Of a stretch of 64,000 nt of DNA, positions 3,232 to 61,137 are shown one piece after another. The notes under the pieces are model-generated. The model was not told the DNA's origin and did no database searches. It was given only the letters and a program-made list of their open reading frames with translations. The DNA comes from a virus. The position numbers and the translations under genes are program-made. The DNA lies in the IMG/VR virus record IMGVR_UViG_3300045988_015843; one strand, given 5' to 3'. How positions within the stretch are numbered: position 1 is the stretch's first letter; every line of letters starts with the position of its first letter.

Positions 3232-3278
3232 ATAGTTGGTTACTAAAAACTATCTGCAGTGACACACAACACTGCAAT

Positions 3279-3370
3279 GCGGGAGTAGCTTATGAGGTAG
3301 AGCAGTGTGAAGTCTGGAATAATATCAGATGAGATCCTCATGGAAGCAGGTTCGAGTCCTGCCCCTGCGC
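3279..3370 (+). tRNA. Atypical tRNA-like gene with a type II (long variable arm) layout; anticodon not assignable by eye
   Basis: Elements that fit a type II tRNA:
- T arm GCAGG-TTCGAGT-CCTGC (3346-3362)
- D arm GCTT-ATGAGGTA-GAGC (3288-3303)
- acceptor 5' TGCGGGA(G) against 3' CCCTGCG, 6 of 7 pairs
- hairpin TCTGG-AATAATA-TCAGA (3313-3329)
- variable-arm hairpin TGAG-ATC-CTCA (3330-3340)
Problems: 8 extra nt (3305-3312) lie between the D and anticodon arms, and the 7-nt loop lacks U33. Read conventionally the anticodon would be UAA (Leu). It could be a degenerate or unusual tRNA. Confidence 0.45.
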
Positions 3371-5292: not shown

Positions 5293-5367
5293 GGAAGTTT
5301 AGCTCAGTTGGTTTAGAGCGTCTGCCTTACAAGCAGAAGGTCGATGGTTCGAATCCACCAACTTCCA
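5293..5367 (+). tRNA. tRNA-Val (anticodon UAC)
   Basis: Cloverleaf elements:
- acceptor GGAAGTT/AACTTCC, 7 of 7
- D arm GCTC-AGTTGGTTTA-GAGC
- anticodon arm TCTGC-CTTACAA-GCAGA
- variable AGGTC
- T arm GATGG-TTCGAAT-CCACC, one mismatch
- discriminator A
Total length 75 nt. Confidence 0.85.
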
Positions 5368-14433: not shown

Positions 14434-14435
14434 CA

Positions 14436-17400: not shown

Positions 17401-17969
17401 TTCAACCTGCAATGCAAAATGGAGCAAGCTTGTTAGAAGCAGCAGAGGTTCTTACGAATGATAACTTTAACATTATCAAACAGAAGCTTAAAGATATGCA
17501 AGATCGTCAAGATCAACTTTAGCAGCAGCAACAAGAGGCTCAGCAGCAACAAGCAATGCAACTTCAGCAGATGCAGAATGAGGCTAAAGAGCAAGAACTC
17601 ATGCTTAAGGAAGCTGAAATGGATCTTCAGAGGTATAAGATTGATGCTGATAATCAAACCAAGATTGCTGTGGCTGAAATTAGCACATATAGAGGTACTG
17701 AGGATAAGGATATCAATATGAATGGTATTCCAGATCCGATGGAGATAGCTAAGGATGCTACACAGCAACGTAAGATAGATTCAGAAGCATATACTAAGCG
17801 TTATGAAGCTCGTCAGAAAAAGGAGATTGAAGATAAGAAGATCAGTCTTGCTAAAGAACAGATGAAACATGAAAGTGAACTTTAGAAGTAGAAAGACGAC
17901 GCTGCTATGTAGAGAGAAGAGCTTAAGGCTAAGACCGCATTGAAAAACAAAGTAGCTGGTGAACGATGA
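14436..17969 (+). CDS. Portal protein precursor (1177 aa including a 349-aa intein), about 14 in-frame TAG
   Basis: Frame 0 is open from ATG 14436 to TGA 17967. Track ORFs 14919, 15576, 15816, 16134 and 17556 are all in frame. The portal-like motif FNIIRPKVDLLIGEE is present. It lies directly downstream of terL. Confidence 0.8.
15888..16934 (+). mobile_element. Class 1 intein with a LAGLIDADG homing endonuclease, inserted in the portal gene
   Basis: The N-terminal block is CFDPDTEVLM after NPYE. The two dodecapeptide motifs are YYLGLWLGDGF and LMAGLIDTDGHF. The C-terminal block FTVVHN is followed by the +1 Cys (CQWGIPG). The length is 1047 nt, exactly 349 codons. It contains one in-frame TAG (16062). 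Confidence 0.85.
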
Positions 17970-39339: not shown

Positions 39340-42300
39340 ATGCGTAGAAAGAAACACGGTGACGTCTTAGATCCAACGATACATGTTGGATATGAGTTAC
39401 TTAAAAATAGAGAAGCTATTAACTATGCTGTAGCTGCTCATGAAAATGAATCTAAAGCAATAAGGCGTAGCTACACGGAAGCTTATGCTGAGTTAAATAA
39501 AAAACGTGCAAATGCTGTAAATACGCTTATTAAATCCGATAATCCAGAAGAAGTATCATTGGGTAAACAGTTGCAAGCAATGTGGAAAATGCAGCCTGAT
39601 AACGACAAATCAGATGATGCTAAATCTGCTCTTGTGGACGTACTTAGTGGTGGAATAAATGCTGATTTAAATTTATCAGTACTTTCGCACATAGACGGTT
39701 TGGGATTAAACAAGCTTATTACGCCTGATAATACACTCTCATATCTCAGTAGGCTTAATTCAACACAAGCTGATTCTGGAGTTGGTGCCTTGCAAAGACT
39801 TAGTAAGTATGAAGATCATATCAACAATTACTTAAAAGTCCTTGATGCTAAGAAAAAGATAGAGTATCTTGAACAACAAGAAGCTATTCTGAATGATCAA
39901 GCTATTAAGACGTCAGATCCTAAGATGAAGCAGTCGTATTTAAAGCGCTTGTATCAGGTGCGTGATTCTAAATACGCACAAGCAGATATTTTAAATGCGT
40001 ACCAAAAGGATGTTGATATACTTGAGAAAGCAGACCCTACATCAGCTGGTGCAATGATTGATAAGACCAGAAAAGCCATTGAAGACTTTTTTAATCCCAT
40101 GTGGGAAACAACGCCTTTGCGAGATGTATTGAATGATGCAAAAGCACCATTGTACGATTTAAAATCAAAGAGTGATGCTGAAAAACGTAATGCATTGCAA
40201 CAATCATTACGTAACATTGCTGACATCAAGCCATTGTTACAAGCTAATGTTGATCGTAATCTAAAAGATGCTGCATATTATGAACGAAGAATAAGCCCTG
40301 AGTTTGTTGCTAAAAGAGATACTCCAGGTATGGACTTTTTTGATGCAGATACTTATTTATATAAGATGTCTGGTGTAATGGGTTCATCTGGTACATCTTG
40401 GAGAACTCAAATTGCATCTGCTGTTATTGGTGCTGCAGGTGGACTAGCAGCCTCGTTTACAGGAGGTGCATCTGTTGCAGCAGCAGCTCCAATAGTATTT
40501 GGATTGAATTATGCTGCTGGTATTGATGAGAACCAAGCTGAAGTTGCAACAGCTGCTCGTGAAAAGTTTACGGCAATGCTTGGTGGTGAAAACAGTCCTA
40601 AGTATAAGCAGTTTATAAAAGATGGTCGTGCTCAATTACCTAAGAACATATCTGTTCCAGATTCTAGGATTGTTGATATGTATCTAACCGGTTAGATTGT
40701 ATCGAATAAATCTGATATAAATAGAGCTAAGGTTGATACTCATAAAGATATTGAGGCTTTGTTTACAAAAGATATGGTTGCCACTACAGCAAACAATCTA
40801 ATTAATACTGTGTTGGAAGTAATGCCATTCGGTAAGAGTGTCTCAGAAACAATGGGTCTCAAAAACTGGAAGTTCTATAAGAGAGCTAGCGCAATACCCA
40901 GATACTTACGTAAAAAAGGTGGTCTTGCTAAAGAAGCTTATGAAATAGGTTCTGCATTTAAAGCTGGTGCTAAAACTGGTTCTAAGTTGTTTTCACCACT
41001 TGGTGTTGGAGGAACAACTATTGGTGCAGGTATTGGTGGAGCTACAAACACTGCGTTTAGATATATAGGAATGCCGTTCGGAGATCCTGGTTTTAAAAAG
41101 CTTTGGGGTAGTATTACTGACAAATTTCATAGAGTGGTCAATGCAGTAGACAGAGTAAATATCAAATGGTTGAAGAAGTTTAATGCTAAACCTGCTAAAG
41201 GAATTCTTGGTGATAGATTTATCGAGATGAACTATTTTCAAAACAGAAATTATGGTTTGGAATTAGCTAAACGTCTAGGTATATCTGGTGTTTCAGAAGG
41301 TGTTGAGGAAGGTAAACAGTATTAGAATGCAGAAGATTTTAAGAAAGGTTATGATGAACGTCAATTAAGAACTGACGTTATAAGTCTTGCATTCGATGAT
41401 TTCTTAACAGGTCTCGATGTTGGTAGAGATATACTTTCAATACCACTAGATCCTATTGGTATACTTAAAACTAAAGATAAGGATAGACTTGCTGAGGTTA
41501 AGGGCGGTATGTTAGCTGGTTTAACACACGTCGGTTCCGTCGGCATTATGAACTCTGTAAGCCCGTATCTTGAAGAGAAAAGTGCTAATAAGTTCTTAAT
41601 TGAGAACATGCTCACTGAAAATGTTATCGCCAACGACAAGTTAGATAAGCTTATGCATTATTCTAATTCGTCGAGAGAACAGTCTGGCATATGGGATAAA
41701 ATAAAAGCTGGTGTAAAACAAGGAATAACACGCTCAAACAGACTACAGGCCCTTGAAAAAGCTTTTGCTAATTTTAAGGAGCTGAATCAAAAGGAATATG
41801 AGAATACTGGTGACTATATCACATCTCCTGAGAATATAGACAAAGAGTTTGCTGACTTTAGAAGAGCTGTTGGATTAACTAGATCTACACGTATGCAAGA
41901 GATGGCTGAACGTGCTGGAGTTGACACTAATAGTGATGACTATGGCGCATTTGTTGCTACGTATATGATGGCTGCTGACAATCTTCTTGATAAGTCAAAA
42001 CAGTTTGCTAAGAACGAAAGTGAGCGTAATACTGAAGCTAATAAGATACTAAATAGTATTAGTATTGTTAATGAACAAGTACTTGAGGACGCTGGTGTAC
42101 CTAGAGCTTTATGGAATGATCCTAGATTTAATGGTGCAGAACATGATTTAAAACGACCTTTTATTGAACGTCTTGCCAGATTACAAGCATTGCTTGAGAC
42201 TAAGCAGGAACTTGAAGATGCTCTAAAAGCTGGTGCTAATAGAGCGATTATGCGTAAATACATTGACGGTATTGAGCATCAGATTGATATTGTAAAAAAT

Positions 42301-45300
42301 GGACAATATCAAACAGATCCTGAGACTGGTGAACAGGTTAGAGTTGGAGGATTATCTGACCTTGCTCAACGACTTTATTCTGCAAAAATCGGAGTTGATG
42401 ACAAAGGTTATAATCTACATGTTGGAGAATCTATTAATACTCTTGATGATATTGCAGCAGTATCCGTAGATCAAGAAGCTCAAGATAAACTTGCTGATAT
42501 ATACAGACAATCATATCTCGAACAATTTAACATGGAAAATGCCAGTGCTGCATTAGAACAGATTACTGGTACCACAAAGATTGTTAAAGATGAGAATGGA
42601 GAAGACAAAGTTGTTGTTGATAAACCGAGTGGGTTTAATACTATTTGGGATAAGATAAAGGAAGCTCGTAATGACAACGATGTGTTTTGGAATGAGCTTA
42701 CATCTGATGCGTTTAAGACGGATGAAGAGCTTGAAGCCGATAAAGATGCTGGTGAAGTTTATGAAAGTGGTTGGAGTAAACTACGGAATATTACCACAGA
42801 ATACGCTCTCGATGAAAAAGGAGACCGTATTAAAGCGGATGAAAACACTAAACTAAAAGACGATTAGACTGTAAGTCAGGACGGGTACGTATTAAATATA
42901 ACAAAAGAGTCTCCCATTAAAGAGCGTTTGATATTTACTCCAGAAGATCAGGACGAAGTGTCGAAATCTAATGAATATCAAGAAACTATTGAAAGTATTG
43001 CACCCGATATTAAGATTGCATATGGTTATGAAAATAGTTCCAATATAGGTTTAGTAACACAACAAGTTGGCGAAGCAAAACAGCAATTGTTAGAAGCTAA
43101 AGAGTCTGAGAAGCGTGCTAAAGAAGCTGCTAGACTCAGAGCTGAATTGAAACGTAAGCTTGAGAAGGAAGCTGATGAAAAACGCAAAGCATTCATTAAA
43201 TCAAATCCTAAGTACGAAGGTAAATCTAACGAAGTAGTTGATGCAGCTATTGCTAAGCATGAGAAGATAGTACAGAGACGTAAACAACGTGAACAAGAAC
43301 GTGAAGCCAAGGCTCTTGCGAAGTAGATTGAAAAAAATAAGCTTACTAGAGTTGATGGTAAAGTTCATATTGATAAAAAAGGTATTTCACATAAAGTATA
43401 TTAGAGAAAAGATGGTACTTATGTGACAGTACGTTGGGACGAACTTGGTAATCTTAAACAAACAGTTGTCAATAAAAACGATATTATCTCTGAGAAACAG
43501 GGCCTTATAAACGATGCATACACAGAACTTGTCAAACTCATAAAAGAGGTTGACGGACATAACGGCGATGTGATGCGTGCGATACTGTCTAAGATATAGA
43601 TCTCAGATCTTTCAAAGAACGGTATTCTTAATACGTATACACAGCTTTACAAACTACTAAAGGTTGCTGGTAGAGCAAACTCTATTGACATCTATGAGGC
43701 TGTTGTTATGCTTGGATATAGGTTAGCATCTACAGGATATGTGTGGAACAGATCTATGTCTGATCACGATGTTATTGATAGCAATGATATTGAAAATGAT
43801 TATGTTTAGAATGATAAGTTACGTATTGATGAACAACGTTTGAAGTCATTAGATGCTCCAATCATTTATCACAATGGCAAGATTGTAAGTAATCCTACTG
43901 CAACTGTCGAACGTGGTATGTCGTTATCAGATGCTATTAAAAAGGCTAGGTCTGGTGACAAAACGATTGTTGCTAAACTCGTTGAATACAAAAAATATCT
44001 GTCTGAAAATTTAGAAGCTGCTGTTGCAGATATACAATATCCTGGAGATGCAAACGCGGCAAAGTTGATTGAGAAAATCGATCACGAGTTAGATGAACTA
44101 AACAAGAGTCCTGAACAGAAAAAGATCGATAAGATCGTTTCAGATAAAGGTTTAACTAAAACAGATGATGTTTATACGTACAAAGATGGTCGTCAAACAC
44201 CAGTATACTTAGATAAAAATGGAAAGAAATGTATATTATCTAAGTCTAAGAAAGGTTATCGTGTAAACTATACTGTTAAATTTGATCAGAAACCTGCAAC
44301 TAAACCTGAACCTGCTCAACCAGCGCAACCTACTAAACCTATATAGCCTTCTAAACCAGAACAACCAACACAGCCTACTCAGCCTACATCTACCAAACCT
44401 GTTGATAAACCTGTAACCACGGATAAGACTACGCTTTCTCCTCAACAAAAAACTGTCGAAATGCTTGCTAAAAAACGGGCTGAAGACAAGTTAAAAGTTG
44501 GTGTTGATGGTTACGAATTAACAGGACAGGCTTATTTCATAAAAGTTGATGGTAAAATACAACGATTCAGACGTGTTCATGCTACTATTCCTGCACAAAC
44601 TTTAAATCTTAAGAGATCTATTGATCGTATGATCAATACTTTTGAGTAGATTTATAACGAACCAATGTCTGATGAAGAGGTTGTTTAGGAGGTAGTAAAC
44701 ATAATAGAAGATGTCATAAAAAATGGTGCGTATGTAAAGCTCGAACGTGATCGTTGGAGCAACAGCCATGTCACAATTGTTGATTTTGAGAAACAACCAG
44801 GCCTTGAGAGACATCCGCTTTCTGCGCAAGCAATTCATGATCTGAATGTATACTTGAAATATCTCAAAGAAGCAGGGCCGTTTAATTATGATGAGTTTTT
44901 TGGTATAGTTAGTGATGTTGCACACATCATAGCATCAACAGAACCTGGTACATCTGTACATGTTGGTAATGTAGTAGAAGGTGTTGTTAACCATGTCGTA
45001 CAACGTGTATTGGATCAAGGTTATGAAAATATTGTTGGTACTGAAGAGCAACTTGTCGATGAAATACTTAATACAAGATCTCATGACAGTTTTAAACAAT
45101 CATCAACTCCTGAATCTGGTGAATACGGATCTAACCGTACGTATGACGAGTGGTTTAATAAAAACAGAGGCGTAGTAAAGAATCTTGTATTAGATGTATT
45201 AAGATAGCTTAAATCTTTCCACGACTTAGGTTGGGTTGTACAATCTGAAAAGCTTACATTATATGGGGAGTTTAAAGGTGTTGGTCGTGTTGCTGGAGAA

Positions 45301-48300
45301 CCTGATCTTATTGCTATTGATCAAGATGGTGGTATCCACATGATCGATATTAAAACATCAACAAAATCATTCTACGATGGTGAAGGTTATTCTAGTAGAT
45401 ATGTTGATGTTTATGGTGCTGATACATGGGGTCAGAGATTTAGCACACAAACGCAATACTCTAATCAACAGACTGCATATAGAATGTTGATGAAAGCATC
45501 GTTAGGATTAGATACAACTGCTGAATTAATGCCGTATGTTGTAGACTACAACTACGGTACTGGACTGATATCAAATGTTGTGCTTGAGCCACGTATTCCT
45601 ATTATATATTCTGATTTTATAGAGGCAATGTTCAATGGTGTGGAGTATTCAACGACTGAAAACTACACTATGATGTCTGGATTCTCTGAACGATTTGTTC
45701 AAGGTATTTTGGATACATATAATACAGCAATAGAAAATTACAATAAAGCTGTTTCTGACTTTGAAAGTCAGGTTGGACAACTTCCCAAACAATTCATGTT
45801 TGATCTCTCTATTATTGAGTATATGACCCCTGCACAGTATACTCTTGATGAGATTCATAGAATAGACGCAAAAGCTAAAAGGTTGTGGGATATTACGCAA
45901 CAGATACATCATTGTATCGAACAAGCGTTGGCTAATGAAGAAGATAAAGCCAATGGGCAATCTACTACCGGGTCAAATCCTAAACCTTAGGCTACACCAC
46001 AGCCTGAAACTAAACCAGAACCTGAAAAACAACCTAACGCTCAAACAAAGCCTAGTGAACAACCACAAGTTAAACCAAGTGATAGTTCTACAGAACCAAC
46101 AGGTTTGATTAGACTTTCAGACGGTTAGGTTTATAAATTCTCAGTTAGTTTCGAGAATCCATATCCGCAGATTCAAAGCGATCGTGCTGAAAGAGATACA
46201 CAGTTTGCAGCTATAATAAATGCTGCTGACTTTGGATTACCTGAAACCACTTTTGCTACGATATCTAATACTGGTAAAAATCTCGATAAGATATAGATTA
46301 AGATAACATACGTAGATAGAAAGACTGGTAAGAAATATGAGTTTGGTAAGACTCTTCCTAATGGTAAGCGAGATTATTTGTTTATAAACTCTGGTAATAA
46401 CTTACCGGGACATGACGTTACAGCAAATTTCAGAGCGTTATATGATCTGGCTATGCAGCTCACAGAGTACAACAAAGCTAATCCTGGCAAGAAAGCTATT
46501 CTTCGTGTCACATAGTGGTATCGTACAGATGGTAGGATGATATATAAAGAGGAGGATGGTGTTGTGTCTCGTGAAACACATCCTGTCGTAGATCCTAAAC
46601 TAGGCATTATTACAGACGATCTATATCAATTTAGTGCTGAAAGCCAAGTTCCTGGTGATACACGTACAATGTTAAACGATATAGGCTTTGTAAAAGATGG
46701 CGCTGTTTATACGTATGGCGATAGTAGTACTAGACGTCAATTAGATGTTGTACCTAAAGATATCCCTAATGGATTTATAGTATATTCTAAACGTATACCA
46801 AGAGCCGAAGCACCTGGTGGATTTAGACGTCTACCCATTGTACTAAGGAAAAGAGCCCTTTCTGACGGAGATGTTAATTTCATAATGGATGTTCTTAAGG
46901 ATCCATCATTGCTTGGCCAACCTTATAATGGGTTACATGGAGCAACGATAGGTTCTATAAGTAATCTTATTTTACCTATTATAACAGACGCTAAGTACCT
47001 ATCACCTCAAAAGAAGCTGTTTGTAGATCGTGCTAGCAATACAGTTTATTATATAACTGCTAAAGAATGGAAAGATGCCAAAGACGGTGTTGGAACACTG
47101 AAGGGTTACAACATGTCTAATGAAAGTCATGTTGAAGAGTTAAAGCAAAGGATAAAAGATTTGTCTATAGAAGTTAACTCTGATATGATGCAATCTAGAT
47201 TTGGTAATGACACTGATTCAAACTTACCGTTGAAAGCTATACGAGAGTGGTTCAACGACAATCCTTCAGAAAAAACATTTACAGTTAGAGGTAGTCTTGG
47301 TAATACGTCAATATCATTTGATAGGAGTGATTTCCAAGATCATAAGACTGATAACGGCGATGTGTATAATGGATTAAGTGGTGCTGGTTGGTATTTACGT
47401 AGTGGTATATTACAAACAAATGCTGTTGGTATTGGTGCACCTCACGTTCACATCAACGCAGTTACTATGGACACTAAAGGATATCCGAAAAAATTGTTTA
47501 GTAACGGAGCTATTATTGATGATACTACAGAGTCAAAACAAGAGCCCAAGACTGAAACTAAGCCTGAATTGAAAATAAATCCAGATTCGAAGAAAAAGCC
47601 ACCTAAACCTAGTCCAACGAGCGGTGGTTAGAAATCTGATTCTGCATTAGGTGCTTTATCGTCACTTCTTGACACGCAAGATGACAATCAAGTCACGACC
47701 GATAATATAGATAACCAATCTGCTGATCAACAAGCTTTGGATAATGAACAGATAGAAGACTGGGAGCTCTTTCATATTGGACGAGTTGCCACAGGTAAGA
47801 CTATCAATAAAGAGAAAGCTCGTAGACACGCTGAACATATTCTTGGAAAAGAGTTTGTTTCTGATGATAGAACATTTGGATTTATTGATGGCGTTATTAA
47901 ACAATTCGACGATGGATCTGCTGTATTAGGTGTATGTAGAAAAGATTCGATAAGATTATCATCACTCGCAGAGAACGGTGTTGAATATCACGAGGCGTTC
48001 CATAGAATATTCGAGCTTATTATACCAGAGCATTTACGTGATTCTATATACGAAAAGGTTGCTGCTGACAATGACATAGATTTGAAAAACGATCCTGATT
48101 ATACGAACCATCGTAAGGTTGCAGAGTTGATGGCCGATTGGTATTGGGATTATCAAGTTGGACGATTCCATGTTGATTCTTACAACATATTCGCAAAAGC
48201 TTGGAATAGAATGCGTGACTTTGCATTACGTTTCACCAATAGATATCGTAATGATCGTGCGATATTAAAACTATTCTCTGATATACGTAGAGGTAAGTAT

Positions 48301-51300
48301 GCATCTCGTAAAGCTAATAGTAGTGCTATAAAACGATTTGTTACAAACTTTAAAAACAACTTGATGTACAAACAGCATGGTAAGGATTTCAAACACATCG
48401 TTGGTGATGAAATGTATTATCATATTGTTGAAAGTGCAAAGTTCTTCGTATTTACCGGATCTGATATAGCTGTTAACGGTTCAAATATATCTGATTTGAG
48501 CAATGCTTTAAACAAAGAAACTATTCTGAAAGGTGCTCAACGTCTTGCTGATGCAGGCAATGATATACTCGGAATCAACTTATCTGAAGACCAAAGAAGT
48601 GAGGGTCAAAAAGCATTGTTTGAGCTTATAGACAATCTTGATAATATACAGTTTAAATTAGATCTTGCTAATTCTATAAAAGCTATTAGTACTAACTTCG
48701 AACAAGTTGAATCTGAAAAAGCTGATAACGATGCTGATGCAGGTGATACGTATTCTATAAATCAATCTATAGAAGGCCATATAAAAGATGCCGTCGAATT
48801 CGATCCGTTTGAGAAAACGTCTCAGCAGGTCAGATTCTTCTTTGCAACAATACCAAATCAGAAATGGTCATATATGCCTAGTATACAAAATGGTAGGGTC
48901 AAGCTTGTTCGTACTAAAGAACAAGTCTTTAACGAGTATGGTTTACCTGAGTTTATACCTGTACGAGATGCTTATAACAAGTTTATAAACACTGTACATA
49001 ACGTAGATACACTCGATGAACTAATTGATACTCTCAACAAGAAGGCTCAGATAGAACCGTTCTATGAGACGATTGCTGAGAACATAAAGGCTGTTATGGA
49101 TAAGCGCATGTCATATGATGGAGATTCTGTCAAATATGACATTGATGCTGAAAACCTATTAGTTCAGATAATGGCACAAGCTCGTTCTAATAAGTACAAC
49201 ATGGTTACCATGATGAGCTCTAGTGCTGAAGAAGGTGTTGATACAACATTCGGAGAGTATAAGACTAGAGTCATGCCTACTGGTGTAGAGTATCAAGCTA
49301 GAAATACAGCTATTTCTTGGTCATCTAATTTTGCTAATGGTGGTACAAATCTTGTTAAGATAACTAAAGTTGGAAAGCGTGCTATAAACGATAAGGATGC
49401 TGATGCAGCTAGTACGTTCTCAAACTTTGCCAAGTTCTTAACTGGTACATATGATAACAAACGTTTATCCTTGAAGGATTTTATACAAAACGCTATACTT
49501 GGAAAGCTTGGACTGAAACAATACTTAGGATTACCAGTTGGAAACAAGATATTTAAGATACAAGATATAGACGATGTTTCAATGCAGTTATGTAAAGAAT
49601 ATATCGTACAACAGTTGAATTCTATGGGTATTAACATAGAACTCAATGCGTTTAACTATATGCTTGTTGAAAAATACGGTTCTGCTGGTGCTGAAGCATT
49701 GTTGAAGATGCTAACATCAACAAATGTTGAGGATTCTATGACTACATTCATACAGTTCTTAAATAACATTGTTGTAAACAACCAACTAAATGTTACAGAT
49801 GACAACAAGTTCTATGTTGGATCTTTGCCAGTCGCACTTGATTTGATCTATACAAAGTTTGCATTCACTAGTAATCTGGCTAACTGGCAGTATAGATATA
49901 AGCAAGCAACAACTTAGTTATCTGTAAAGGGTTCTGGTAATAACCTTAAATACTTAATATCTCAAAACAACTTCTTAACAGATAGTACTCGTGACTTCAA
50001 TAAAAGGGGTCCTCAATTCCAACTTATATCATCTGGTACAGATCCATACATCTATTCAACACGTACAGATCCAAATACAGGCCAGTCTATTTGGGCAGGA
50101 TCTTTTGTATTGCATAGTATGTTAAATAATAGCCAAGCATCTATTGAATTACAATCGCTTGATGGATTCCGTACAGACAACAAAGGTGATTATGGTGCAG
50201 ACTATTTTTAGATGACGAATGACGAGGATATTCTAAGTAAGATTAGATTCTTGATGGATAATTCTCTCATATTCCAAACATTGTCTGATAAGAAGAGTTA
50301 TTTCACCGTACATCTCAAAGGTTTCCGCATTCCTGGTATTGATTATTCTCACATGTACGATAATTCTGGAAAGGTTGTTGTAGATGGTAATGCGTTAGGT
50401 GATCAGATTACCAACGGCAGTTGCTCATATGATATTGCTGGTTTTGGCACACCTGTATTAATGCAAAGACAAGACGTCATAGATCAACTTTTATCATATG
50501 CATATGCTGAGCGTGAAAGTATTATTAAGACTATTAACGCAATGTCTGAAATGACTGATGATGAGAAGAAGAAGGCTGTTAAAAATTTCTATTCTTCTCA
50601 AAACGGTGCTAAATTCTCATCATTGCTTGGAATATGGCCTGTGACTGAAAGCGGTGTTGGATCATATTTATCGTTTAATAATGAAAAACTAACTCCTAAA
50701 AAAGCTCTCGAAAGAGCAGATGAATACTTCTTTGCACCAACAGTTGGTAATAAACCAATGACAGAGCGGGCTGCTAATGACTATCGTAGAACTTTAATTG
50801 AGCTGAATTTACAAAGGCGTTTAGACGCTATGATGGAAAACTTACAACATCGTGGTCTTATTGCAAAAGATTCAGATGGTTATTTAGTAAACAAAGGTCT
50901 TCCAGCAGATGCTATTGAATTTATAGCGAAGTCACTACTTAGAAAACAAAACAAACTCGATGCTACAGGAAACGCTATAGACCAGAACACAATGCGTATG
51001 GCAATACATACTGCAATCGGACTGTTTGCAAACGACATGATGGTTAAATCTATCATGTCAGTACAAGAAACCGAACGTATTTATGCAGCAAACCCTGCGT
51101 ATTTCAAATGGAAGTACGATAAGAATACTGGTGAACTATCTGATCGTACTGTAGATGAGCTTAAGCGTGCTGGCGGTTTCGTATCTACTGGTATAAACAA
51201 CTTTATGGAACTTACTAACATTCCTCAACACTGGCTTGATAAGGATGGTTAGTTTACAGGTGAATATCGTTGTTGTGAGATTAAAGATGAAGAAGTGGCA

Positions 51301-54300
51301 TCTCCTCAAATAGAGGAAATTAAAACACTAATGACAACGTCTGCTCGTGTACAAGCGTTACGTGAACATTATCTAAAACAACAGAAGTCTGATTATGAAG
51401 AGCGCATACTTAAGATGAAACGTGACGAACGCCCTAACGAAGATGAACAGTTATATGAGCGTGAACGTATTGCATAGGATGTTGAAAATAAACTCGCTAC
51501 GATGAGTGATGACGTCGTTAAGCGAGAGCTTAAGTCATTAGGTATGTTGGATATTATAGACAAGAAGTCGAAAGCTGCGTATAATAGTTATACAGGAGGC
51601 ATTGATGTAAATGACGGTGCTGCATATATAACAGACGATATGTGTGAGATGCTTTTACGAATGGTTGGTTCGTATTCGTCAGAGGTGGCCGAAGCGTTTA
51701 AAATATTACGATCTACGTCTGTTAAAGATATGCGTTAGATTGCAGATGCATATACTAAGGTTATAACAACTGTCATTGGTACATAGAAATATACAGCCTA
51801 TGGCCGTAGGTAGGATTCTACTGGAAATATTGTAGATTATTATCACAAATATGCGCTGTTCCCAATATTCCCAATGCTTGCAACTGGTAAATTAGGAAAC
51901 ATCTATAATATGATGAAAACTAATAATACCGACATGGTATTGATTAGCTCTGCTGTAAAAGTAGGAAGCCAAGGTGCTGTAGCTAATCCTAAATGGGATG
52001 ATTATCGTCAAGATAATGATAAAGATAACAAAGCTAATTACAACAAAGACGGTTCGTTAAAGCCATTGTTTTCAGAATCATTTAAAGTCAACCCGTATTC
52101 TGTATCGTTTGAATATCTTCGTAAACAGTTAAATACTGATCCGAATGAGAAAAAGTATATGAATATTGGTACTTAGACTACTAAGATTGCATTAACAAAC
52201 TTGAATCTCCATGCACAATATTTAACAAGAAGTGGTGAAGTTAGATCTGGTTAGTAGATACATGACGATATCATGCAATCTATGAATGCTCTTAGTAATA
52301 TCGGAAGAGATTAGTTACGGAGCCAATATTTCTTAACAAACGATAAAGGATAGTTTGTTGATGAGAACGGAAATGTTGTAGATAAGCCTGTTGTAGATCC
52401 AGTTAAGTATTCGAAAGCATTAAAACAAATCATTGGTTCTGATAAAATAAGTTTGAATTTAGCTTAGGCACTACAACTTGTTCCTTATAAATACGGTAAT
52501 GGTAAAACTCGTTACAGGCTCAATATGCCTTTAGATGCTGTACAATCATCTAATTTCTTAGAATCTAAGATTATTTCTAATATAAACAAGTCTGTTATTG
52601 ATACTAAAACACCTGGTGCTGCATTCATACAACGCTCTGTGTGGGGTATGGAAGGTTCTACGCTATATGATAGTCGTAAAGGCAATATTGTAAGTGATGA
52701 TGATATTGCTCCGTCTATAAATGGTGGTAACAGCCTTCAGATGGTTAATGAAGAGGGCTCTATGGACTGTGTATTATCAGTAGATTTCTTTACAAAGATT
52801 CTTGGTGACTTGTTCCATTATACAACTGGTGGCGATTATATACTCGATAGATTTGGAGAGCGTATACCAGTAACCAGAATATATAAAGGCAAGACTTTGT
52901 ATAAAGTTAAATCTGCAGACATGTTTAACGAAGGTAAGTTTGTAGAAACATGGGTCGATGACATAGACAATCTTCCTGATGGTACTGAGGTAGTTTACAA
53001 GAAAAATAAAACAGAACACCATACACGTAGTTTTGATGAAGTTCGTCAATACCTGATAGATCAAGGTATGATTGGTCCTAAAGCTAAAGCTAACATTCTA
53101 GCTTATCGTATTCCTACACAGGCTCAATCATCGATCCACGCATTAAGATGCGTTGATATATTGCCTGTTGTTAACGATACTGTAATGCTACCTGCAGAGT
53201 TTACTAGAATTACAGGATCTGACTTTGATATTGACAAACTATATTTAACAGCTCTTAATTATCATAATAGAAAAGATGGTGGTGTATCTGATATATACGA
53301 TGAGGGTACTGAAAAATATTATCAAAACAAGATTGTAGATGCATATCTCGCATTGTTGACAGACAGAGCTGACGAGAATTCAAAACCAAGATCGTTTATA
53401 TCATTACACCGTTCTATTGATAACGATACACAGTTAGCATTTGACGCATTAAACGAAATTGGTACAACAGATTCTACCAAGACTGAACAACCATATCAAT
53501 TCTACGATCTTACTACTCAGACTGGTGTTAAGAATAGTTATATAACTGGTAAAATTGGTATTGGCCCGTTTGCATTGAACAACAATAATCACATCTTGAC
53601 ATGGCTATATCATGTTAGCTTTAAGCCAACTAAGAATTCAATCATGACATAGTTTGGCTTGAATAATCTTGATAATATGACAGATATAGATGGTGATTCT
53701 ATAATGGGTTGGTTGTCTGCATTTATTAACGGACACGTGGATATTGCTAAAGATGCGTGGGTTTCTCGTTGTAATGTAAACCCGTTCACATACAATTTAA
53801 CAAACTTGTTACTACGTACTGGTTGGGGTAAGAATACAATATTCTTTTTACGACAACCTATTATGATGGCAATGGCTGATGCATATATGAACGCTAGTTC
53901 TGAATATATGTCAGACGGAACATCAAAGTTTAGACGTCAACAACAAGCTATAGACGATGTTGTGTTTGGAGAAGATAGTAAATATCATCTTGAAAATGTT
54001 GTGGTTAGTGGTAGTACTGTAGCACAATGGTTAGAAGTTTTTGAAAGTAACGATCCTGAAACAGCTTAGCTTAAAAAGGGTCTTAATGAAGACTTGAAAA
54101 AGATACTGACTCGTGAAAATATGCTAGCTTAGGCTAAAACACCTCTTGGCAAAATGGGCGATATATAGTTCCAAGCAGCTGTCTATCTTGCATACAAACA
54201 GTTCGATAAATACGCAAATGCATTGTCAAATCTAGTAAAGTATTGTAAGATTGATACTAAGAAACAGGGTAAGAGTATAGCAGAACAACTTGTTTGGTAC

Positions 54301-57300
54301 GAAGGATACGATGATTTGTTTAACAATGGTGAAACTGGTGCATTGTTTAACAGAGCGTCTCTTTTAAAGCTTAGAGATGAAAGCTATGTAGGTGTTAAGA
54401 CTGAAAATGCTATCAATGCTACAAAACATATTATTGAAGGTCAGTTCTTCAGTGGTTCACATTAGTTTATCAAAGCTATTGAAAATTTAAGCAAGCTTGT
54501 TGGTAATGAACATCGTTACGAAACTGTTAATTTTGTCGAAGCAGCTACAAAAGCTATTAGCGCATCGATCAAATCAGAATACTTTAATTATTATGTCAAT
54601 AAGCTATTTGGTGATTCTACATACGTAAGAGATCTTGTTAATGGGAGTTCGGAGCAGCATAACGTAAGATATCATTATGATAAAAAGGCCCCTTATATCG
54701 AGGTTGATGAAGATATGATTTATCCATTGAGAACGTATATTGGTAAACCGATAAATATTTCATGGAAGACCAAAAGCGGTTCTCAAATGAAAGCATATCC
54801 GAATGTTATCGTTGCTATTAGTGGTAATAAAGTATATCTTCAGAAGGAGATATAGTTCAATAGTAAGGGTAGAAGATCACCTCTTACTGTTGATGCCAAT
54901 ATAGATGTACAATTTACTCAAGGTAATAATACAATATATGACCGCATAGGAGCTCTTAAGACTCTTATTGAGAACAACAGTGCTCTTGCAGATCTTAAAG
55001 GTAATATATTGTTGCGTGATATAATATTAGCTGCAACATAGAAGTATACTCCATCTCATAAACGCATTGCTGGAGAAGCATCTGATACGTATGATGATCT
55101 TAAGTTCATTAAGCTTGAAACATTCTTTGAAGATAATGGAGATAAGACTGATCAGTATATTAGAGCATGGGATTCATTGCTGAGATATACTAATGATAAT
55201 GAAAGATTGTAGAATGCCATTCGTAAATTAGCAAACGATCTTGTTATATACGCATTTATAACATCTGGCGATACTAAAGGATCCACTAAATTATTCCAGT
55301 ATGTACCTGATTCCTGGAGAAACGGTGAGTTTAATCCTGAAGGTGTGACATCATATGCTGAATTTATTCGTAATAAACTTGACGAGTTAAATGGTTATGG
55401 CGAAACTAAGATAGATCTTGATGATGTTATATTGAATAACTGGCAAAATGATCAGTTTGTACCAAGATATCGTGTGGATGATAAGGCTGAATAGCAAAAG
55501 CTGACACCTATATATACTGACGGACGTAATACATATGGTTATCCTGTAGTAATTCAGGGTATGAACATTGAAAAACCTGCGGATAAAAACCATATGCCTA
55601 AGGTAAATGTTGTAATAGATCCTACAAAGGCTCCTCAATATATTAAGATAACCCGTGATTATAAACATCGTAATTCACAAAGACAGTATTCTATATACAA
55701 GTTCCACTCTGTTGCTCAAACTGCTGATGGAATAAGGTATCCTATATACGTTAAAGTTGAACCAAAAGGTATTACTATAAAATCTTCTGGTGGTACGTAT
55801 ATGGTGACAGAATATGGTCGTTCAGACAGACTAGATAAGGCTGAGAATAGCACTATACCTGAACTGTTTGAGTTGTTATACACAGCTCAAAACTTCCAAG
55901 ATCAGTTGAGAGGTATGCCTAAGAGTGATCTAAAGGATTCTAATATATTATAGGACCTTAGACGATTTGCTGAGTTGGACATGGCTGAAAAGATGGCCAT
56001 CAGTCGTAGATCATATAGTGCTAATATGGACATTGCACAAACTCAATCTGTTCAATTTAATGATACAACTTAGAATGTGAATGGTGTTACTAACACTGCT
56101 GTAAATCCGCTTACTATATCTGATAAAACTGAAGCATTTGGTGTAACTGTAGATCCTAAGCTTAAATAGAATTACAAACAATGGTTAGTAGATCATCCAA
56201 ATGGTATTGTTGCGTATAGGATTAATTATAATAACTTTAATACTGCTGAAAATGTAAATAAGAATATTATAGGAAATCCATTTGATTGGTAGAAATATGG
56301 TCAAGAAAAATCACTATAGATGTTCTACGAATGGCTTACTACAGGGACTAATCATGGCGAAGTTTTAGCTACCGATGAATATCGTAATGCTATAATCAAC
56401 AAGTTGCTAAGTATAGACAAGCCTGAAATTTTATATTACAAAGAACTTGGTCATCCTAGTCATGCAACAGTTCTTGGATATCTTATTGAACACAAAGAGC
56501 TGTTACAACCTCAATCTCAAGCAAGTACGTCTGTTACCAGTAGTGCTACTTAGACAAATGATAGACCTGTTAATATATATTTTGGCAATGGTCAAAATGA
56601 TGAAAATATCGAATTAAGTAATTTTGCAATAAGGCCGTTTTCGTTTACGCCAAAAGATTTTTATTTCGGAGATGATGCTCGCGAACACCAGTTTTATAGT
56701 GTAGAATAGGCGTTTTAGTATTATAAAATAATGGTGTTGGCGTCTATGTCCGGCTCTTTAAATTATTCGATACCTACAGGTGCTCAAGAGGCTGCTAGAA
56801 AAAGTATAAGTGCAAATAGAAACATTTTATTAAAAAGAGCACGAGAGATATTAAATGCTTCAACTTCTGCGCATGCGAGATATTTAGGTAGACAGCCTCT
56901 TGGATTGTAGGATGTATCTTCTCAATTTGGAACTATTGCCTCTGCCAAAGATATTGAAAAGTCTATATTTAAAGTTTGGGATGAGAGAAGTTCAAAAATA
57001 ATGAAGGCTCTTATTAAAGCTTCTTTTGAACAGAATCCTCAAGCAGCTCAAAGACTTCTCGACACTGGTAACGCTACACTCACGCATAACCAAGATAAAT
57101 CTAAGTGGAAGATTGAATTCCCAAGATTGTTAATGGAGGTTCGTGATGAGTTACGTAAATCTCAAAGTAATAGTGTTGATCAAACAAGTAGTATCGTAAA
57201 TATAACCAATGATCCTCAAGAAATTATTAGTCTAAACAACGTTGTCATAAGACCATTTGTGCATACGTTCGAAGACGGTAGTAAAAAGGAATTTAAATCT

Positions 57301-60300
57301 ATAGCACAAGCCTTTCAATATATAAAAGCAACGTATGCAGATCCTGTTGTTAACGAAAATATAATTAGACAGATAGAACAGACTACAGATCCTTCTGATT
57401 TAATAGACCTTGGTGAATTTATCAAACAACTTGATGTTAAGTCTTGGGATAATGATTCTTATAATATAATGACACAATTAACCAAAGAATCATTTGAACA
57501 AAATCCATCTGCTGCTAAGATTTTGACTAATGAATTACGTAAAATCGGTGTTGACACTTCAAGTAAACCTCAGAGTAATAAATCTTATAACAGTATAACA
57601 ATAAGCACAGGTTATACAAAAGGTGAACCTGAGGATAATCCGAATACAGATTATGTATTTACTGAGAACGCAGAGGCTGCATTAGCTGTATCAAGTCGTG
57701 GACACGGTCTGGATAAGAGTGGAATATTTGACCAAGAAGAATTCCCGTTCAAAGGCAGTGTTAAGTTGAACGTATCTGATGTACATCAAACTAACAGTGC
57801 TGCTGTACGTACTGACGCCAAAGGAAACATTACACAAAATGCATACGGTATTGTTGTTAAAAAATATCAACATGATGCGAATGGTAAATTTGTAGCACAA
57901 CCAGGATGTTTTGAAGATACAGATGAAGATTTTAAAAAATTCAAATCTATCAATAATATCGTCTTTAAAGACATAGAGCAATCTAAAAACACAAACATAG
58001 TATTTCCGTCACAGATCGCTCTTGGGCGAGCTGCGTTACCATTGCAATTTGCGGGCTGGTTACACAATTAGCTTGAGCAAAGATTTGGGTTGGAGACTAA
58101 TATAGAACGATCTAAAAAAGCTTCTTACGAAGGTTATGGTTTACGTGTAATTGGAGTTGGTACAAAAACTAACACATCTGTTGATACTAACAGCCAATCT
58201 AGTACTGAAGATTCTAAACCAAAGACTAATGAAGACAGTAAGTCTGTACAACAGATTAAATTAACAGCTGGTCAAGAAACTGCTAAGAAAGCCATATTGA
58301 ACTTTATAAAGACTGCAGATGCTTCCAAAGGAGAGTATTTCACTCTAACAGGTAAAGCTGGTACAGGTAAGACTACGTTAATACAAGAGGTTATTAGAGA
58401 GATTGCTAAAGACAATCCTTATCAGAGATTTGTTGTATCTGCATTAGCTCATAAAGCAGTACAAGTCATATATGGTAAGACTAAAAAGTCTTCAAAGTTT
58501 GTTTCTGCTTCAACCGTAGCATCGTTACTTGGTATGAAATTAGATCAAGAAACTGGAAAATTCAAGCAAGTTAAAAGTGGTAAATCCAAGATTAAACCCG
58601 GTAGTATATTGTTTGTAGATGAAGCGTCTATGTTGAATGAACAGAATATAGAATGTTTAATAGATGCTGCAATAAGTAGCGATTCTAAAGTCATATTCTT
58701 AGGTGATCCTGGACAACTTCCTCCAATACGAACAGGCGATCTCGTTAAGTACGGAACTGATTCGTTATCTCCGGTATTTAAGACCCAAAAGGATGAATAC
58801 TCAGCAGGTCTTACAGAAAGAATACGACAAGGAGAAGGTAGTCCGATATTGGATTATGCAGATACGTTCTGGAACTATAGTACAACAGAAGGTTAGACTG
58901 ATCGACGTGTTAATGACGAAAATATGTCTCGTGTTGAAAACGCTCAAGGATCTATTGAGTTTATAAACGAACAACAGGTTGATAAGATAGTACCGTTATT
59001 TAAACAAGCTGTTGAAACAAACAATCCTTCATTAGTTAAGATTGTAGCATATCATAATAAAGCTGTTAAAGAGTGGAACCAAGATATTCGTCGCAGTGTG
59101 TATGGTGATGAATATAGTCCGAACCCGTTACCTGGAGATATTCTGATGATGACAGATACATACAATGACCCAACGTCTGATGTTGCAAAACCGTTATTGT
59201 TTAATAGTGAAGATATATCTGTAATTAGTACAGGACCTATTCGTACAGTAGATGGTATTCAAATCATGGAGACTACTATAAAAGACGCTCGTGGCAAAAT
59301 GGTCACAGTGCCTTTAATAATACCTACTGCACAGAATATAGCTGCGTTTACTGCTCAGAAAAATAAGTTATTTAGTTATGCTAAGTCGCTAAAATCCAAG
59401 AATTATAGAGCATATCTTAATGCATTAGATACGGCTTGGAATTATGGAACAGAATGGGCTCATGTTGAATATGGTTATGCTATAACAAGCCATAAATCAC
59501 AAGGTTCTACATACGATGTATCTATTGTAGATTCTGCAGACATCAACAGTAATGAATTTATGTCAGACATCAGTAAAGCTCGTAGTATCTATACAGCTAT
59601 AACAAGAGCTCGTAACTCAGCTGTTATCTTACGTGACAAGCTTGGTACTCTCGATGTTGATCTGAAACAGCTTAATGACCGTATAAACGGTTATAAAGAT
59701 GGTTCTGTAACACCTCCTGCTCAGATCACACCTGATACTGTAGATAATGTAGGTAATACATATAAAGAGAATATCGAAACATTGGAGTCTGATAAAACAA
59801 TATTATCTAATGAAGAGATATTGAAGCTTAGACCATTTACTGGTAATGATAAAGCTCCTCGTATAGCTGTTGCGTCCGAACATACTGATCCTGTATTTTT
59901 TGCTAAGCATATAAAAGACTTCTTCGATGGTAAAACATCTGTAAAACGAAAGTTCGGTGATCCAATCACGGCCAAAGACATCGATGCTTTATATATTATA
60001 ACAAAGCATGATGGCATTCCTTTAAGAACCATTCTTTCTATAAAAATACCTAAGATAATACATTTCAGTATAACAGGCATGGGTGGTACTAAATATGAAC
60101 CTGGTGTTATGCCATATAACGAATTACTTGATCGTATTGGTGATTATATAAAGCAAGGTCTCGATCCATCTATGGTAACAGTTCGTATTGATCCTATTAT
60201 ACCTGGTGTAACACCTAGACATGTTATTGAAAATATTATAAAACGAGCGTCTTCTATGGGTATTAAGAATATAAGATTTAGTGTTATGGACTTTTACTCA

Positions 60301-61137
60301 ACAACAGCTCAGTTTACAGAAGCTGCTGGTTTTGATTATTCTAAATATTACATACCGATGAAGGGTTATGATGGTAAATAGCTTATGACATTGATATCTA
60401 GGGACGGAAGATCGTTTTATGACTCTAGTGATAAAAATTCTCCGCTCAATAGTGCTAGAGGTAGGAGAGTTGGCAACAGCATTGTTGTTACTGTGAGTTA
60501 TGGAGCTGAGACGAAGATGTATGTTCGTGGCAAAAGTGGTAAAGTTTTGACGAAGACTATAAATACGTCTGAAATGACCGATGATGCCATTAAGAGTAAT
60601 ACTGGGTGGAATGCTTTAACTGCAGATCAAATCATACACGACTAGGTAGCAAACAGAGTAGCTGCTGGTGTATTATTACAACCGATGTATGAAAGACACG
60701 CTCGAAAAGAGGTAATAACCAACATTGCAAAAATAGTTAAAGAATATGGAGATAAATATGGTGTTACGTTGTCGACATGTGCTGAACCAGATATTCTTCC
60801 ATCTGGAATATCTCATGAGGGTTGTTTGAGCGTTTAGGCTATAAATAGAATACTTGGTACGCATATTGACGATAAAGGTACGGATAATAACAATATTAAA
60901 TCAAGACCTCTTTGTTCATGTTATGGTGGTAAGACGGATATTCTTGCATATGATAAACGTTGTGCTTCAAGCTGCACATACTGCTATGCGCATCACAATA
61001 GTAACGCTGCAGCACTTTTATATAACAAAGATGGATCTTTGAGGAACATTCCTCTCACAACTACTCGTAAAGATACTGAGAAATTTGATGATACAGATAT
61101 TGATGATAAATTCATATATCATTGTAAAGGTAAATAA
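39340..61137 (+). CDS. Giant polyvalent virion protein (7265 aa) that includes the crAss-type virion RNA polymerase region
   Basis: There are 23 track fragments: 39340, 40759, 41509, 42928, 43840, 44461, 44854, 45340, 46537, 47737, 50212, 51295, 51502, 51874, 52525, 53659, 54223, 55561, 56320, 57001, 58090, 58924 and 60385. All are in frame 1. I read every gap codon by codon. Only TAG interrupts the frame (about 52 times). The first TAA/TGA in frame is TAA at 61135. Confidence 0.8.
44461..45990 (+). other. PD-(D/E)XK nuclease domain within the giant ORF
   Basis: GEPDLIAIDQDGGIHMIDIKTS at 45295-45360 gives the D ... D-x-K motif. A downstream QYSNQQTAY supplies the Q..Y motif, and RRVHATIP lies upstream. 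Confidence 0.6.
46537..55953 (+). other. Virion RNA polymerase-like region of the giant ORF (catalytic DFDID at 53221-53235)
   Basis: ITGSDFDIDKLYL is a DxDxD metal-binding motif of the type found in the crAss-like virion RNAP. Region size and position after the cargo genes fit. Domain limits are approximate. Confidence 0.55.
47989..48003 (+). other. HExxH zinc-metallopeptidase motif (HEAFH) within the giant ORF
   Basis: The context is NGVEYHEAFHRIFELIIPEH. This is a motif-only call. Confidence 0.4.
56170..56553 (+). other. DUF4326-like segment
   Basis: IGNPFDW(Q)KYGQEKSL(Q)MFYEWL ... ILYYKELGHPSHATVLGYLI resembles the GNPF ... W ... CH..VL pattern. Low certainty. Confidence 0.3.
56554..57180 (+). 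other. NADAR (YbiA/DUF1768) domain 1
   Basis: Pattern: LSNFAIRPF ... FYSVE(Q)AF(Q)YYK ... GRQPLG ... W ... SFEQNPQAAQRLLDTGNATLTHN... Confidence 0.65.
57220..57540 (+). other. NADAR domain 2 (shorter paralog)
   Basis: Pattern: VVIRPF ... FKSIAQAFQYIKA ... SWDNDSYNIMTQLTKESFEQNPSAAKIL. Confidence 0.55.
58240..59650 (+). other. SF1 (RecD/Dda-like) helicase domain
   Basis: Motifs:
- Walker A: TGKAGTGKTT (58351-58377)
- Walker B: ILFVDEASML
- LGDPGQLPPI
- YAITSHKSQGSTYD
- YTAITRARNSAVIL. Confidence 0.8.
59830..61040 (+). other. DUF1848-like domain at the C-terminus of the giant ORF
   Basis: Pattern: IAVASEHTDPVFFAKH ... ITGMGGTKYEPGV ... VTVRIDPIIPG ... C-terminal Cys cluster CSCYGGKTDILAYDKRCASSCTYCYAHHN. 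Confidence 0.5.

Follow-up and report, generated by a model that had tools for sequence, protein, structure and literature searches.

A reshuffled NADAR-containing module on the RNA polymerase chain of a crAss-like phage: a candidate injected counter-defence against ADP-ribosylation

The crAss-like phages dominate the human gut virome, and to our knowledge almost nothing is known of how they cope with the defences of Bacteroidales. The subject of this analysis is a viral sequence of 64,000 nt (IMG/VR record IMGVR_UViG_3300045988_015843; the whole stretch is called the window below) and, in particular, a block of domains embedded in one giant open reading frame (ORF) together with a virion RNA polymerase (RNAP) module. 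Two of these domains belong to the NADAR family. The block sits in a hypervariable slot, a main point that was overlooked in the initial annotation of the stretch, where the domains had been read as an injected activity against ADP-ribosylation. We lean, with a confidence only slightly better than even, towards a reading in which a swappable ADP-ribose-related module rides on the virion-RNAP chain, the first NADAR (NADAR-1) being an active glycohydrolase and the second (NADAR-2) a decayed one; the module would be delivered with the DNA and strip ADP-ribose from modified nucleic-acid bases. The earlier interpretation is thus backed by the domains, the shared frame and the residues of NADAR-1, while the idea itself is less new than had been implied.

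All coordinates are positions in the window, every feature listed lies on the + strand, and amino acid numbers are those of the giant ORF. The closest annotated genomes, cr124_1, cr131_1, cr272_1 and cr1_1, belong to the family Suoliviridae of the Crassvirales, and the source of the window is, by this kinship, a Suoliviridae-like crAss-like phage of the gut.

The NADAR pair

The two NADAR domains lie back to back, as had been noticed earlier, at 56560..57180 (NADAR-1) and 57181..57540 (NADAR-2). Scanned alone, each copy exceeds the gathering score of the Pfam NADAR family (PF08719, 35.1 bits), with 38.6 bits and an E-value of 1.7e-9 for NADAR-1 (aa 5748-5921) and 40.8 bits and an E-value of 3.5e-10 for NADAR-2 (aa 5967-6068); scanned together they reach 70 bits (E 3.6e-19). 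The profile check proposed for the recoded translation therefore gave a significant result for NADAR and no match for DUF4326, the family to which the segment preceding the pair had been likened. The check on catalytic residues was likewise divided, since NADAR-1 keeps its Glu, Lys and His while NADAR-2 keeps only the Lys.

NADAR-1 is a phage-type NADAR with two insertions. It has the Glu at E5790 (56704-56706), the Lys at K5797 (56725-56727) and a His at H5917 (57085-57087), together with the LGR and WD motifs. An alignment of NADAR-1 with 20 related phage and metagenome NADARs yielded the consensus INIYAGTGENAxLSNFAxRPF...VEQAFQxxK...LGR...WD...SFEQNP...TGNAxLTHxQDxGKWGxEFPxLLMEVRxEL, and the profile of this subfamily matches E. 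coli YbiA (2B3W) over nearly its full length with an E-value of 5.7e-15 and the Phytophthora NADAR (PnNADAR, or Pn; 8BAU) with an E-value of 7.8e-14. The Glu of NADAR-1 is the counterpart of the residue that contacts the distal ribose (Pn E43, EcC7 E88, T4 E36), and the Lys seven residues further on, which serves in phosphate and adenine binding (Pn K50, EcC7 K95, T4 K43), is K5797 in NADAR-1 and K5997 in NADAR-2. The functional importance of E88, K95 and D171 has been reported for the EcC7 NADAR (PMC11543638), and E36 and K43 are the residues mutated in AdfN of T4 (PMC11825919). The third position is occupied in the subfamily by a near-invariant His, H5917 in NADAR-1, which aligns with the conserved Glu of YbiA and PnNADAR. 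According to Schuller et al. (2023, PMC11543638), this Glu (Pn E125) is an Asp in one NADAR subfamily and a His in phage NADARs. With its Glu, Lys and phage-type His, NADAR-1 looks catalytically complete.

Conservation among relatives is consistent with such a role. The Glu, the Lys, a Thr-His pair and the Trp are kept in the NADARs of six metagenomic contigs (L008-L013) and three reference crAss genomes, and the codons that differ between NADAR-1 and its orthologues (15 synonymous and 12 nonsynonymous in one comparison, 24 and 17 in another) give a rough sign of purifying selection. Neither NADAR-1 nor NADAR-2 matches Pfam Phage_30_3 (PF08010, the family of T4 gp30.3) up to an E-value of 10, and some relatives match it below threshold (25-29 bits against 36).

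NADAR-2 had been called truncated and diverged, and so it is. Its catalytic Glu has become Ala (A5990, 57304-57306) and LGR has become LGE, whereas the Lys is retained (57325-57327). The sequence passes from FEQNPSAAKIL directly into NELRK, with about 26 residues missing, among them the His hairpin and the greater part of the last helix. The remaining core is modelled by AF2 with a pLDDT of 94-97, and Foldseek matches the model to 8BAU (E 6e-4) and 2B3W (E 0.029) at TM scores of 0.41-0.44, which are low because the domain is truncated. Given these losses, NADAR-2 is probably a dead remnant, a degenerate pseudo-NADAR that most likely no longer hydrolyses anything. It may survive in frame only because it lies inside an essential giant ORF.

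How the two copies relate to each other can be read from their spacing and their nearest relatives. The EQAFQ motif of NADAR-1 starts at nt 56704 (aa 5790) and the AQAFQ of NADAR-2 at nt 57304 (aa 5990), a distance of exactly 200 codons (600 nt), as had been reported. A recent tandem duplication was considered as the source of this spacing and was rejected: the copies are 36% identical in amino acids, they represent different alleles, one long and one short, and no tandem repeat was found across them at the DNA level. The SFEQNP motifs of the two are 468 nt apart, since NADAR-1 carries its two insertions of about 20 residues each. We read the 600 nt as a coincidence of domain lengths, not as a repeat period. 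NADAR-1 is the long allele, as in P0001, L008 and L009; NADAR-2 is nearest to the short allele of L011-L013 and of P0011/P0013, sharing 49% identity with the latter. Probably, then, a long-type NADAR recombined ahead of an existing short NADAR-DUF7831 unit such as that of cr131_1 and cr272_1, after which the short copy, now redundant, would have decayed in frame. The DELRK codons of NADAR-1 and the NELRK codons of NADAR-2 share a 14-nt match, which would fit an internal in-frame deletion in NADAR-2 but is so short that it could be due to chance. It was also observed that the middle of NADAR-1 (56641-57013, with both insertions) is exchanged for a shorter, different sequence in L011-L013, and that L011 looks like a mosaic of segments like NADAR-1 and segments like NADAR-2, which suggests recombination inside the NADAR domain.

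Partner domains and the hypervariable slot

The segment ahead of the pair (56116..56535) had been described as DUF4326-like. This description stands as a remote homology and fails as a Pfam assignment: the segment does not match PF14216 (gathering score 25 bits) even at an E-value of 10, one of nine relatives matches it at 13.1 bits (E 0.16, below the gathering score), and among 92 close homologues there are no Pfam assignments at all, PF14216 included. The family is nevertheless large, with 730 representatives in a library of 1.84 billion proteins, many of them within proteins of 2,000-6,800 aa. For comparison, bona fide DUF4326 proteins were retrieved with a made-up probe; all of the matches listed carry PF14216, and 35 were aligned. 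The profile of the family aligns with that of the bona fide proteins over 72 columns in hhalign, with a probability of 92.5% and an E-value of 5e-7. The features that align are GNPF, a Y..W helix and a ..PxHA..L motif, and in the family itself GNPF, W, YYKE and PSHA are invariant. The invariant Cys residues of DUF4326 (C74, C76 and C82) align with Y, K and S, so that of the CxC...CH signature only the His is retained. A homologue, P0107, served as a proxy for the window segment in modelling (AF2, pLDDT 84.5). Foldseek searches of PDB and BFVD with this proxy returned nothing significant; the best PDB entry was the phosphatase 2F46 (E 1.3), and named DUF4326 proteins stood at BFVD ranks 6, 7 and 18 with non-significant E-values of 1.6-4.1 (TMt 0.40, 0.46 and 0.17). 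We take the resemblance to DUF4326 to be real but remote, outside the Pfam criterion and without the Cys signature. In a scan of IMG/VR with the module, one locus only was returned, and it matched the DUF4326-like part.

Behind the NADAR pair comes a DUF7831-like domain (57562..58119), which belongs to an uncharacterised family and is a recurrent partner of phage NADARs. The window sequence has no match in Pfam, and NCBIfam likewise yielded nothing of use for the segments on either side of the NADARs. The domain was recognized by BLAST, with E-values of 1e-16 to 1e-37, to the Pfam-called DUF7831 parts of P0078 and P0084, and also to P0038 and P0050; the AF2 model of this part was of low confidence and hence gave no fold information. 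In cr272_1, cr131_1 and L009, DUF7831 follows NADAR directly, and in the first two of these, which are collinear with the window here, one intact NADAR and DUF7831 stand just after the RNAP module. At the same position cr1_1 has DUF7831 only, and cr124_1 has neither domain.

The extent of this variability became clear from five metagenomic contigs of different assemblies (L007, L008, L009, L011 and L012). Their nucleotides are about 84-98% identical to those of the window as far as nt ~56066 (in L007, as far as 56552), and the similarity resumes at nt 58220. The stretch enclosed is the slot (56067..58219), reaching from the C-terminal end of the RNAP module to a helicase domain. The window fills it with the DUF4326-like domain, NADAR-1, the pseudo-NADAR and DUF7831. 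In L007 it holds the DUF4326-like domain and a further domain, X; in L008, a NADAR of the NADAR-1 type and X; in L009, the same NADAR type, DUF7831 and X; in L011, a short NADAR and X; and in L012, a short NADAR only. A NADAR is thus present in four of the five close relatives and a tandem NADAR in none of them. The X domain, about 190 aa long, also adjoins NADAR in many database proteins. It is SLOG-like by its motifs, and its matches to DprA and cpYpsA are sub-threshold (E 0.03-0.13), so its assignment to SLOG is not established. The GC content and the TAG density of the cassette equal those of its flanks, which argues that the cassette is native to this recoded lineage. On the alignments, the slot appears as a set of DUF4326-like, NADAR, DUF7831 and SLOG-like domains that are reshuffled at one fixed position behind the RNAP.

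The recoded chain and its other domains

The NADARs had also been placed on the same chain as the virion RNAP, and a single open frame does join them to the DxDxD module for which tblastn finds RNAP matches. This frame (39337-61137; 7,266 codons) contains 52 in-frame TAG codons and not one TAA or TGA, the TAG being read through; from the first ATG the ORF runs over 39340..61137 and encodes 7,265 aa of a multidomain, polyvalent-type protein in what corresponds to the crAss-like 'transcription block'. The window is nearly all + strand. Its ORFs are fragmented in the standard code, while TAG readthrough merges them into long frames: ORFs of 200 aa or more then comprise 19,575 codons, against 10,924 without readthrough. 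The Gln codons of the giant ORF would be 52 TAG, 198 CAA and 82 CAG, and both Gln codons of the NADAR-1 EQAFQ motif are TAG (nt 56707 and 56716). We take TAG to encode Gln because of the 21.8-kb frame with its 52 TAG and no TAA or TGA and because of these two motif codons, and the whole reading of the module depends on it. A TAG-suppressor tRNA was not found within the 64-kb window. Of the tRNA calls at 3278-3370 and 5293-5367, a tRNA-Val(TAC) is the only solid one; ARAGORN also calls an unusual 93-nt tRNA at 3278-3370, with four bases in its anticodon, which Rfam does not confirm. A stand-alone HNH-type homing endonuclease ORF without TAG codons (3682-4596) adjoins these tRNA genes.

The core of the RNAP module (53068..53880) has its DFDID, a DxDxD motif, at 53221-53235. 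In tblastn this region matches the 'RNA polymerase' of IAS-virus (E 7e-9), the 'putative RNA polymerase' of crAss001 (E 1e-5) and a 'structural protein' of phi14:2 (46831-47880, E 2e-6), which we take to be the virion RNAP gp66. A phmmer search of the region against PDB sequences gave no match, and the identity of the RNAP rests on the tblastn matches to annotated phages. From aa ~2800 to ~5500 the chain is collinear with the giant proteins of cr124_1, cr272_1 and cr131_1.

The slot is followed by a Dda/RecD-like helicase domain of superfamily 1 (SF1) at 58174..59637 (Pfam AAA_30, E 6.5e-22, and UvrD_C_2; PHROG 325, 'Dda-like helicase', E 4e-77). A DUF1848 domain (60697..60990; Pfam, E 7e-18) is situated close to the C-terminal end, and within it a radical-SAM-like CxxxCxxC motif, CASSCTYC, was seen at 60961-60984; DUF1848 recurs beside NADAR in the relatives P0008, P0014 and P0054. 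In the C-terminal half, PHROGs gave only helicase-type families and, across the NADARs, phrog_1017 of unknown function. No family from Pfam or PHROGs was found for the N-terminal 3,700 aa, and the matches of the first 900 aa are limited to other crAss giant proteins. Gly/Ala-rich hydrophobic stretches occur near the N-terminus (40400-40520, aa ~355-400, and also aa ~570-600) and might be membrane-active segments of an ejection protein. In the N-terminal third there is a motif like that of PD-(D/E)XK nucleases (EPDLIAID...IDIKTS, 45298-45360) that is not covered by any Pfam or PHROG match. Zincin-like HExxH motifs were noted, one in the giant ORF at 47989-48003 (HEAFH, aa 2885) and one at 62559-62573 (HEAIH) in the large ORF that follows, and the proteins carrying them could be proteases that process the polyprotein.

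Taken as a whole, one chain of 7,266 aa combines RNAP, DUF4326-like, two NADAR, DUF7831, SF1 helicase and DUF1848 domains with HExxH and PD-(D/E)XK-like motifs. Many unrelated effector-type domains on a giant chain from a virion or transfer gene block mark a polyvalent protein, and in this respect the chain conforms. Signature PolyVal domains were not found in the window chain itself, but relatives have them. In L007, which is 90% identical, an ART-PolyVal (ADP-ribosyltransferase) domain comes with a 1.3-kb insertion (L007 14244-15541) in the ORF after the giant ORF, and the window is without this insertion at the corresponding site (61523-61529); Kinase-PolyVal adjoins the DUF4326-like domain in P0003 and P0012. 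Upstream of the giant ORF are the genes for the terminase (TerL), portal, capsid and tail-like proteins. An intein-like insert was observed in the portal-like ORF (14412-17969) at ~15888-16937, beginning with CFDPDTEV, ending with VVHNC and containing a LAGLIDADG-like motif.

The proposed role and its alternatives

Under the reading that we favour, the giant chain would be made late and packaged, and it would be ejected along with the genome in the manner of the crAss-type virion RNAP, for which translocation together with the phage DNA has been reported (PMC7886860). Packaging and ejection with the genome would put NADAR-1 in the cell ahead of any phage gene expression. There it would remove the ADP-ribose that ADP-ribosyltransferase defences of the host attach to nucleic-acid bases, the characterised case being the modification of guanine N2 by DarT1-type enzymes, and the neighbouring Dda-like helicase may give it access to single-stranded DNA. 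What the computation shows directly is which domains are present, which catalytic residues they keep, that one open frame holds them and that the cassette varies; packaging, delivery and substrate we infer: delivery from the homology to the crAss virion RNAP (PMC7886860) and the concept of polyvalent proteins (PMC5512222), and the substrate from the fact that characterised NADARs act on ADP-ribosylated guanine in DNA, on RNA guanosine and on cytidine. The clearing of guanine ADP-ribosylation from DNA has been described for characterised NADARs (PMC11543638, PMC11825919), and phage NADARs are proven anti-DarTG1 enzymes (PMC11825919). The swapping of domains between near-identical genomes, with ART- and Kinase-PolyVal domains nearby, is what injected polyvalent effectors (PMC5512222) and genes in an arms race typically show.

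Several points weigh against this reading. The 7,266-aa product could be processed, as HExxH motifs exist, and the presence in the virion and the ejection of this part of the chain are extrapolated from its homologues. Substrate specificity is not readable from sequence. The partner domains (DUF4326-like, SLOG-like and DUF7831) have been tied to small ADP-ribose derivatives by Iyer et al. (2022). NADAR-1, which has no PF08010 match, is not an AdfN orthologue, and the absence of a NADAR from L007 means that the domain is dispensable. For the probable Bacteroidales hosts, a literature search gave no report of DarT1-type systems, and none of relevance on DarTG in Bacteroides or crAss contexts.

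The main rival follows from the partner domains. A module delivered or expressed as proposed could target small molecules derived from ADP-ribose in place of modified DNA, namely immune signals or toxins such as isomers of cADPR, ADPr-phosphates or breakdown products of NAD, with the DUF4326-like, SLOG-like and DUF7831 domains processing other bonds of the same ligands. This has been proposed for phage networks of NADAR, SLOG and DUF4326, with the partner domains linked to small ADP-ribose derivatives (PMC9503650), and it is in keeping with the slot, where NADAR is interchangeable or combined with exactly such partners and where the NADAR block of L007 is replaced outright by the SLOG-like domain. 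However, all phage NADARs tested to date clear guanine ADP-ribose in DNA and rescue phage from DarTG1, and the Dda-like DNA helicase and DUF1848 on the same chain point to nucleic acid. The DUF4326-like domain, moreover, is without all three invariant Cys, which makes a phosphatase-type role doubtful, and the SLOG assignment is based solely on sub-threshold matches. On balance we regard action on small molecules as rather unlikely. Action on RNA, either on the early transcripts of the co-delivered RNAP or on host tRNA or rRNA needed by the phage, seems improbable to us. The domain does share its chain with an RNA polymerase, no hydrolase family other than the NADARs has been found to reverse the ADP-ribosylation of guanosine bases in RNA (PMC11833690), and some NADARs reverse that of cytidine as well (PMC12945103). 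Against this, the adjacent helicase belongs to the Dda/RecD-like DNA helicases, and the letters alone cannot tell an RNA substrate from DNA. Nor do we know of any Bacteroidales anti-phage system that ADP-ribosylates guanine in RNA.

It may also be that the module is not delivered at all, being cleaved off, functioning only late inside the cell, or persisting as a largely neutral passenger in a recombination-prone linker. The tolerance of the slot for a total loss of NADAR (L007) or of all other partner domains (L012) would agree with this, as would the clear decay of one of the two copies here and the HExxH motifs in the chain and the next ORF that could process the polyprotein. Yet all other NADARs at this position, in nine genomes or contigs, retain their catalytic residues, and NADAR is kept in four of five close relatives; the placement among late structural genes and the fusion to a reportedly injected enzyme fit poorly with a late function after DNA replication. 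We therefore give this alternative little weight. Least probable by far is a housekeeping N-glycosidase of the YbiA type that clears intermediates of the riboflavin pathway. It has in its favour weak matches to NCBIfam TIGR02464, 'riboflavin biosynthesis intermediates N-glycosidase', but both scores (25.3 and 37.5 bits) are far under the 73.7-bit cut-off, a His stands where the YbiA clade has its defining Glu, and the context is that of a phage structural or ejection protein without riboflavin genes. The failed equivalog score and the His-for-Glu signature effectively rule it out.

The counter-defence reading can also be extended, more tentatively, to the whole region. The post-RNAP stretch of Suoliviridae-type crAss phages might be a dedicated, fast-reshuffling array of injected anti-defence domains, in which NADAR, DUF7831, SLOG-like and Cys-less DUF4326-like domains, variously combined and with ART and kinase domains in the vicinity, would ride in on the virion RNAP and neutralise immunity based on ADP-ribose or NAD before phage gene expression. 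The pseudo-NADAR would then be more than junk and could serve as a non-catalytic binder or decoy, for ADP-ribosylated nucleic acid or for the host transferase, alongside the active copy. We consider this extension possible, though doubtful in its full form.

If NADAR does travel with the virion RNAP, the counter-defence would be active from the moment of DNA entry, a strategy of deployment distinct from that of the early-gene AdfN of T4, and NADAR would be added to the domain repertoire of polyvalent proteins. The slot is in any case a natural allelic series (NADAR; NADAR with DUF7831; SLOG-like only; and others) among genomes with ~84-98% identical flanks. Such a series could be used to assign functions to DUF7831, to the Cys-less DUF4326-like family and to the SLOG-like domain, and to seek the matching ADP-ribosylation defences of the host.

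Comparison with known systems

Phage counter-defence by NADAR (AdfN, PMC11825919) has been published already, as have the predicted packaging of phage NADARs in the virion and DUF4326-NADAR fusions (PMC9503650). No paper connecting NADAR or DUF1768 with the giant proteins of crAss-like phages came up in our searches; GenBank does label one crAss protein (cr126_1) as 'DUF1768 domain-containing protein'. What seems new, within a principle already known, is that a NADAR lies inside the crAss RNAP polyprotein, that a pseudo-NADAR accompanies it and that the slot is combinatorial.

The AdfN (anti-DarT factor NADAR) proteins, T4 gp30.3 and the AdfN of Bas32 and Bas60, are, like NADAR-1, encoded by phages and built around a Glu-x6-Lys motif (PMC11825919, PMC11543638), and their presumed role, the removal of ADP-ribose from DNA early in infection (PMC11825919), is the one suggested here. 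They are, however, small, stand-alone and expressed early, whereas the present NADAR has two insertions and is embedded in a late or virion protein of 7,266 aa; the Phage_30_3 profile (PF08010) does not extend to either copy. A probable common fold family, suggested by the profile matches (E about 1e-14) and by the Foldseek match of NADAR-2, also connects the pair with DarG1, the NADAR antitoxin of the DarT1-NADAR toxin-antitoxin system, and with PnNADAR (8BAU) and YbiA (2B3W). The contacts to the distal ribose and phosphates are made in these proteins by a Glu and a Lys, both retained in NADAR-1, while the third catalytic position is His in NADAR-1, Asp in DarG1 and Glu in YbiA and PnNADAR, and the loop after the WG motif is shortened in NADAR-1. 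Unlike the DarT1-NADAR system, the module has no cognate toxin beside it.

The partnership of the domains has a precedent in DNA viruses, where DUF4326 is fused to SLOG, Macro or NADAR (Iyer et al. 2022, PMC9503650). Here too a DUF4326-like domain adjoins NADAR, and relatives have the SLOG-like alternative; in contrast to the published DUF4326, the version in crAss and polyvalent proteins has lost the three Cys and falls outside the Pfam model. Phage NADARs were described in the same work as 'typically standalone'.

As for the chain itself, the virion RNAPs of crAss-type phages (phi14:2 gp66 and crAss001) have a homologous DxDxD region and the same position after the tail genes. The gp66 protein is about 2,200 aa long and is not known to carry a NADAR. 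Unlike gp66, the RNAP module of the window is fused to some 2,800 aa upstream and to the accessory array, the helicase and DUF1848 downstream. The TAG recoding is as described for phages of the delta group (Yutin et al. 2021, PMC7886860), and the main text of that paper, which describes the 'transcription gene block' of giant proteins, mentions no ADP-ribose-related domains. Polyvalent proteins (Iyer et al. 2017, PMC5512222), in the account of which NADAR, DUF4326 and crAss phages are not mentioned, resemble the present chain in being giant multidomain proteins of the virion block whose domains are shuffled among relatives. Their carriers are of the MuF, portal and relaxase types, whereas the scaffold here is the two-barrel virion RNAP of crAss-like phages.

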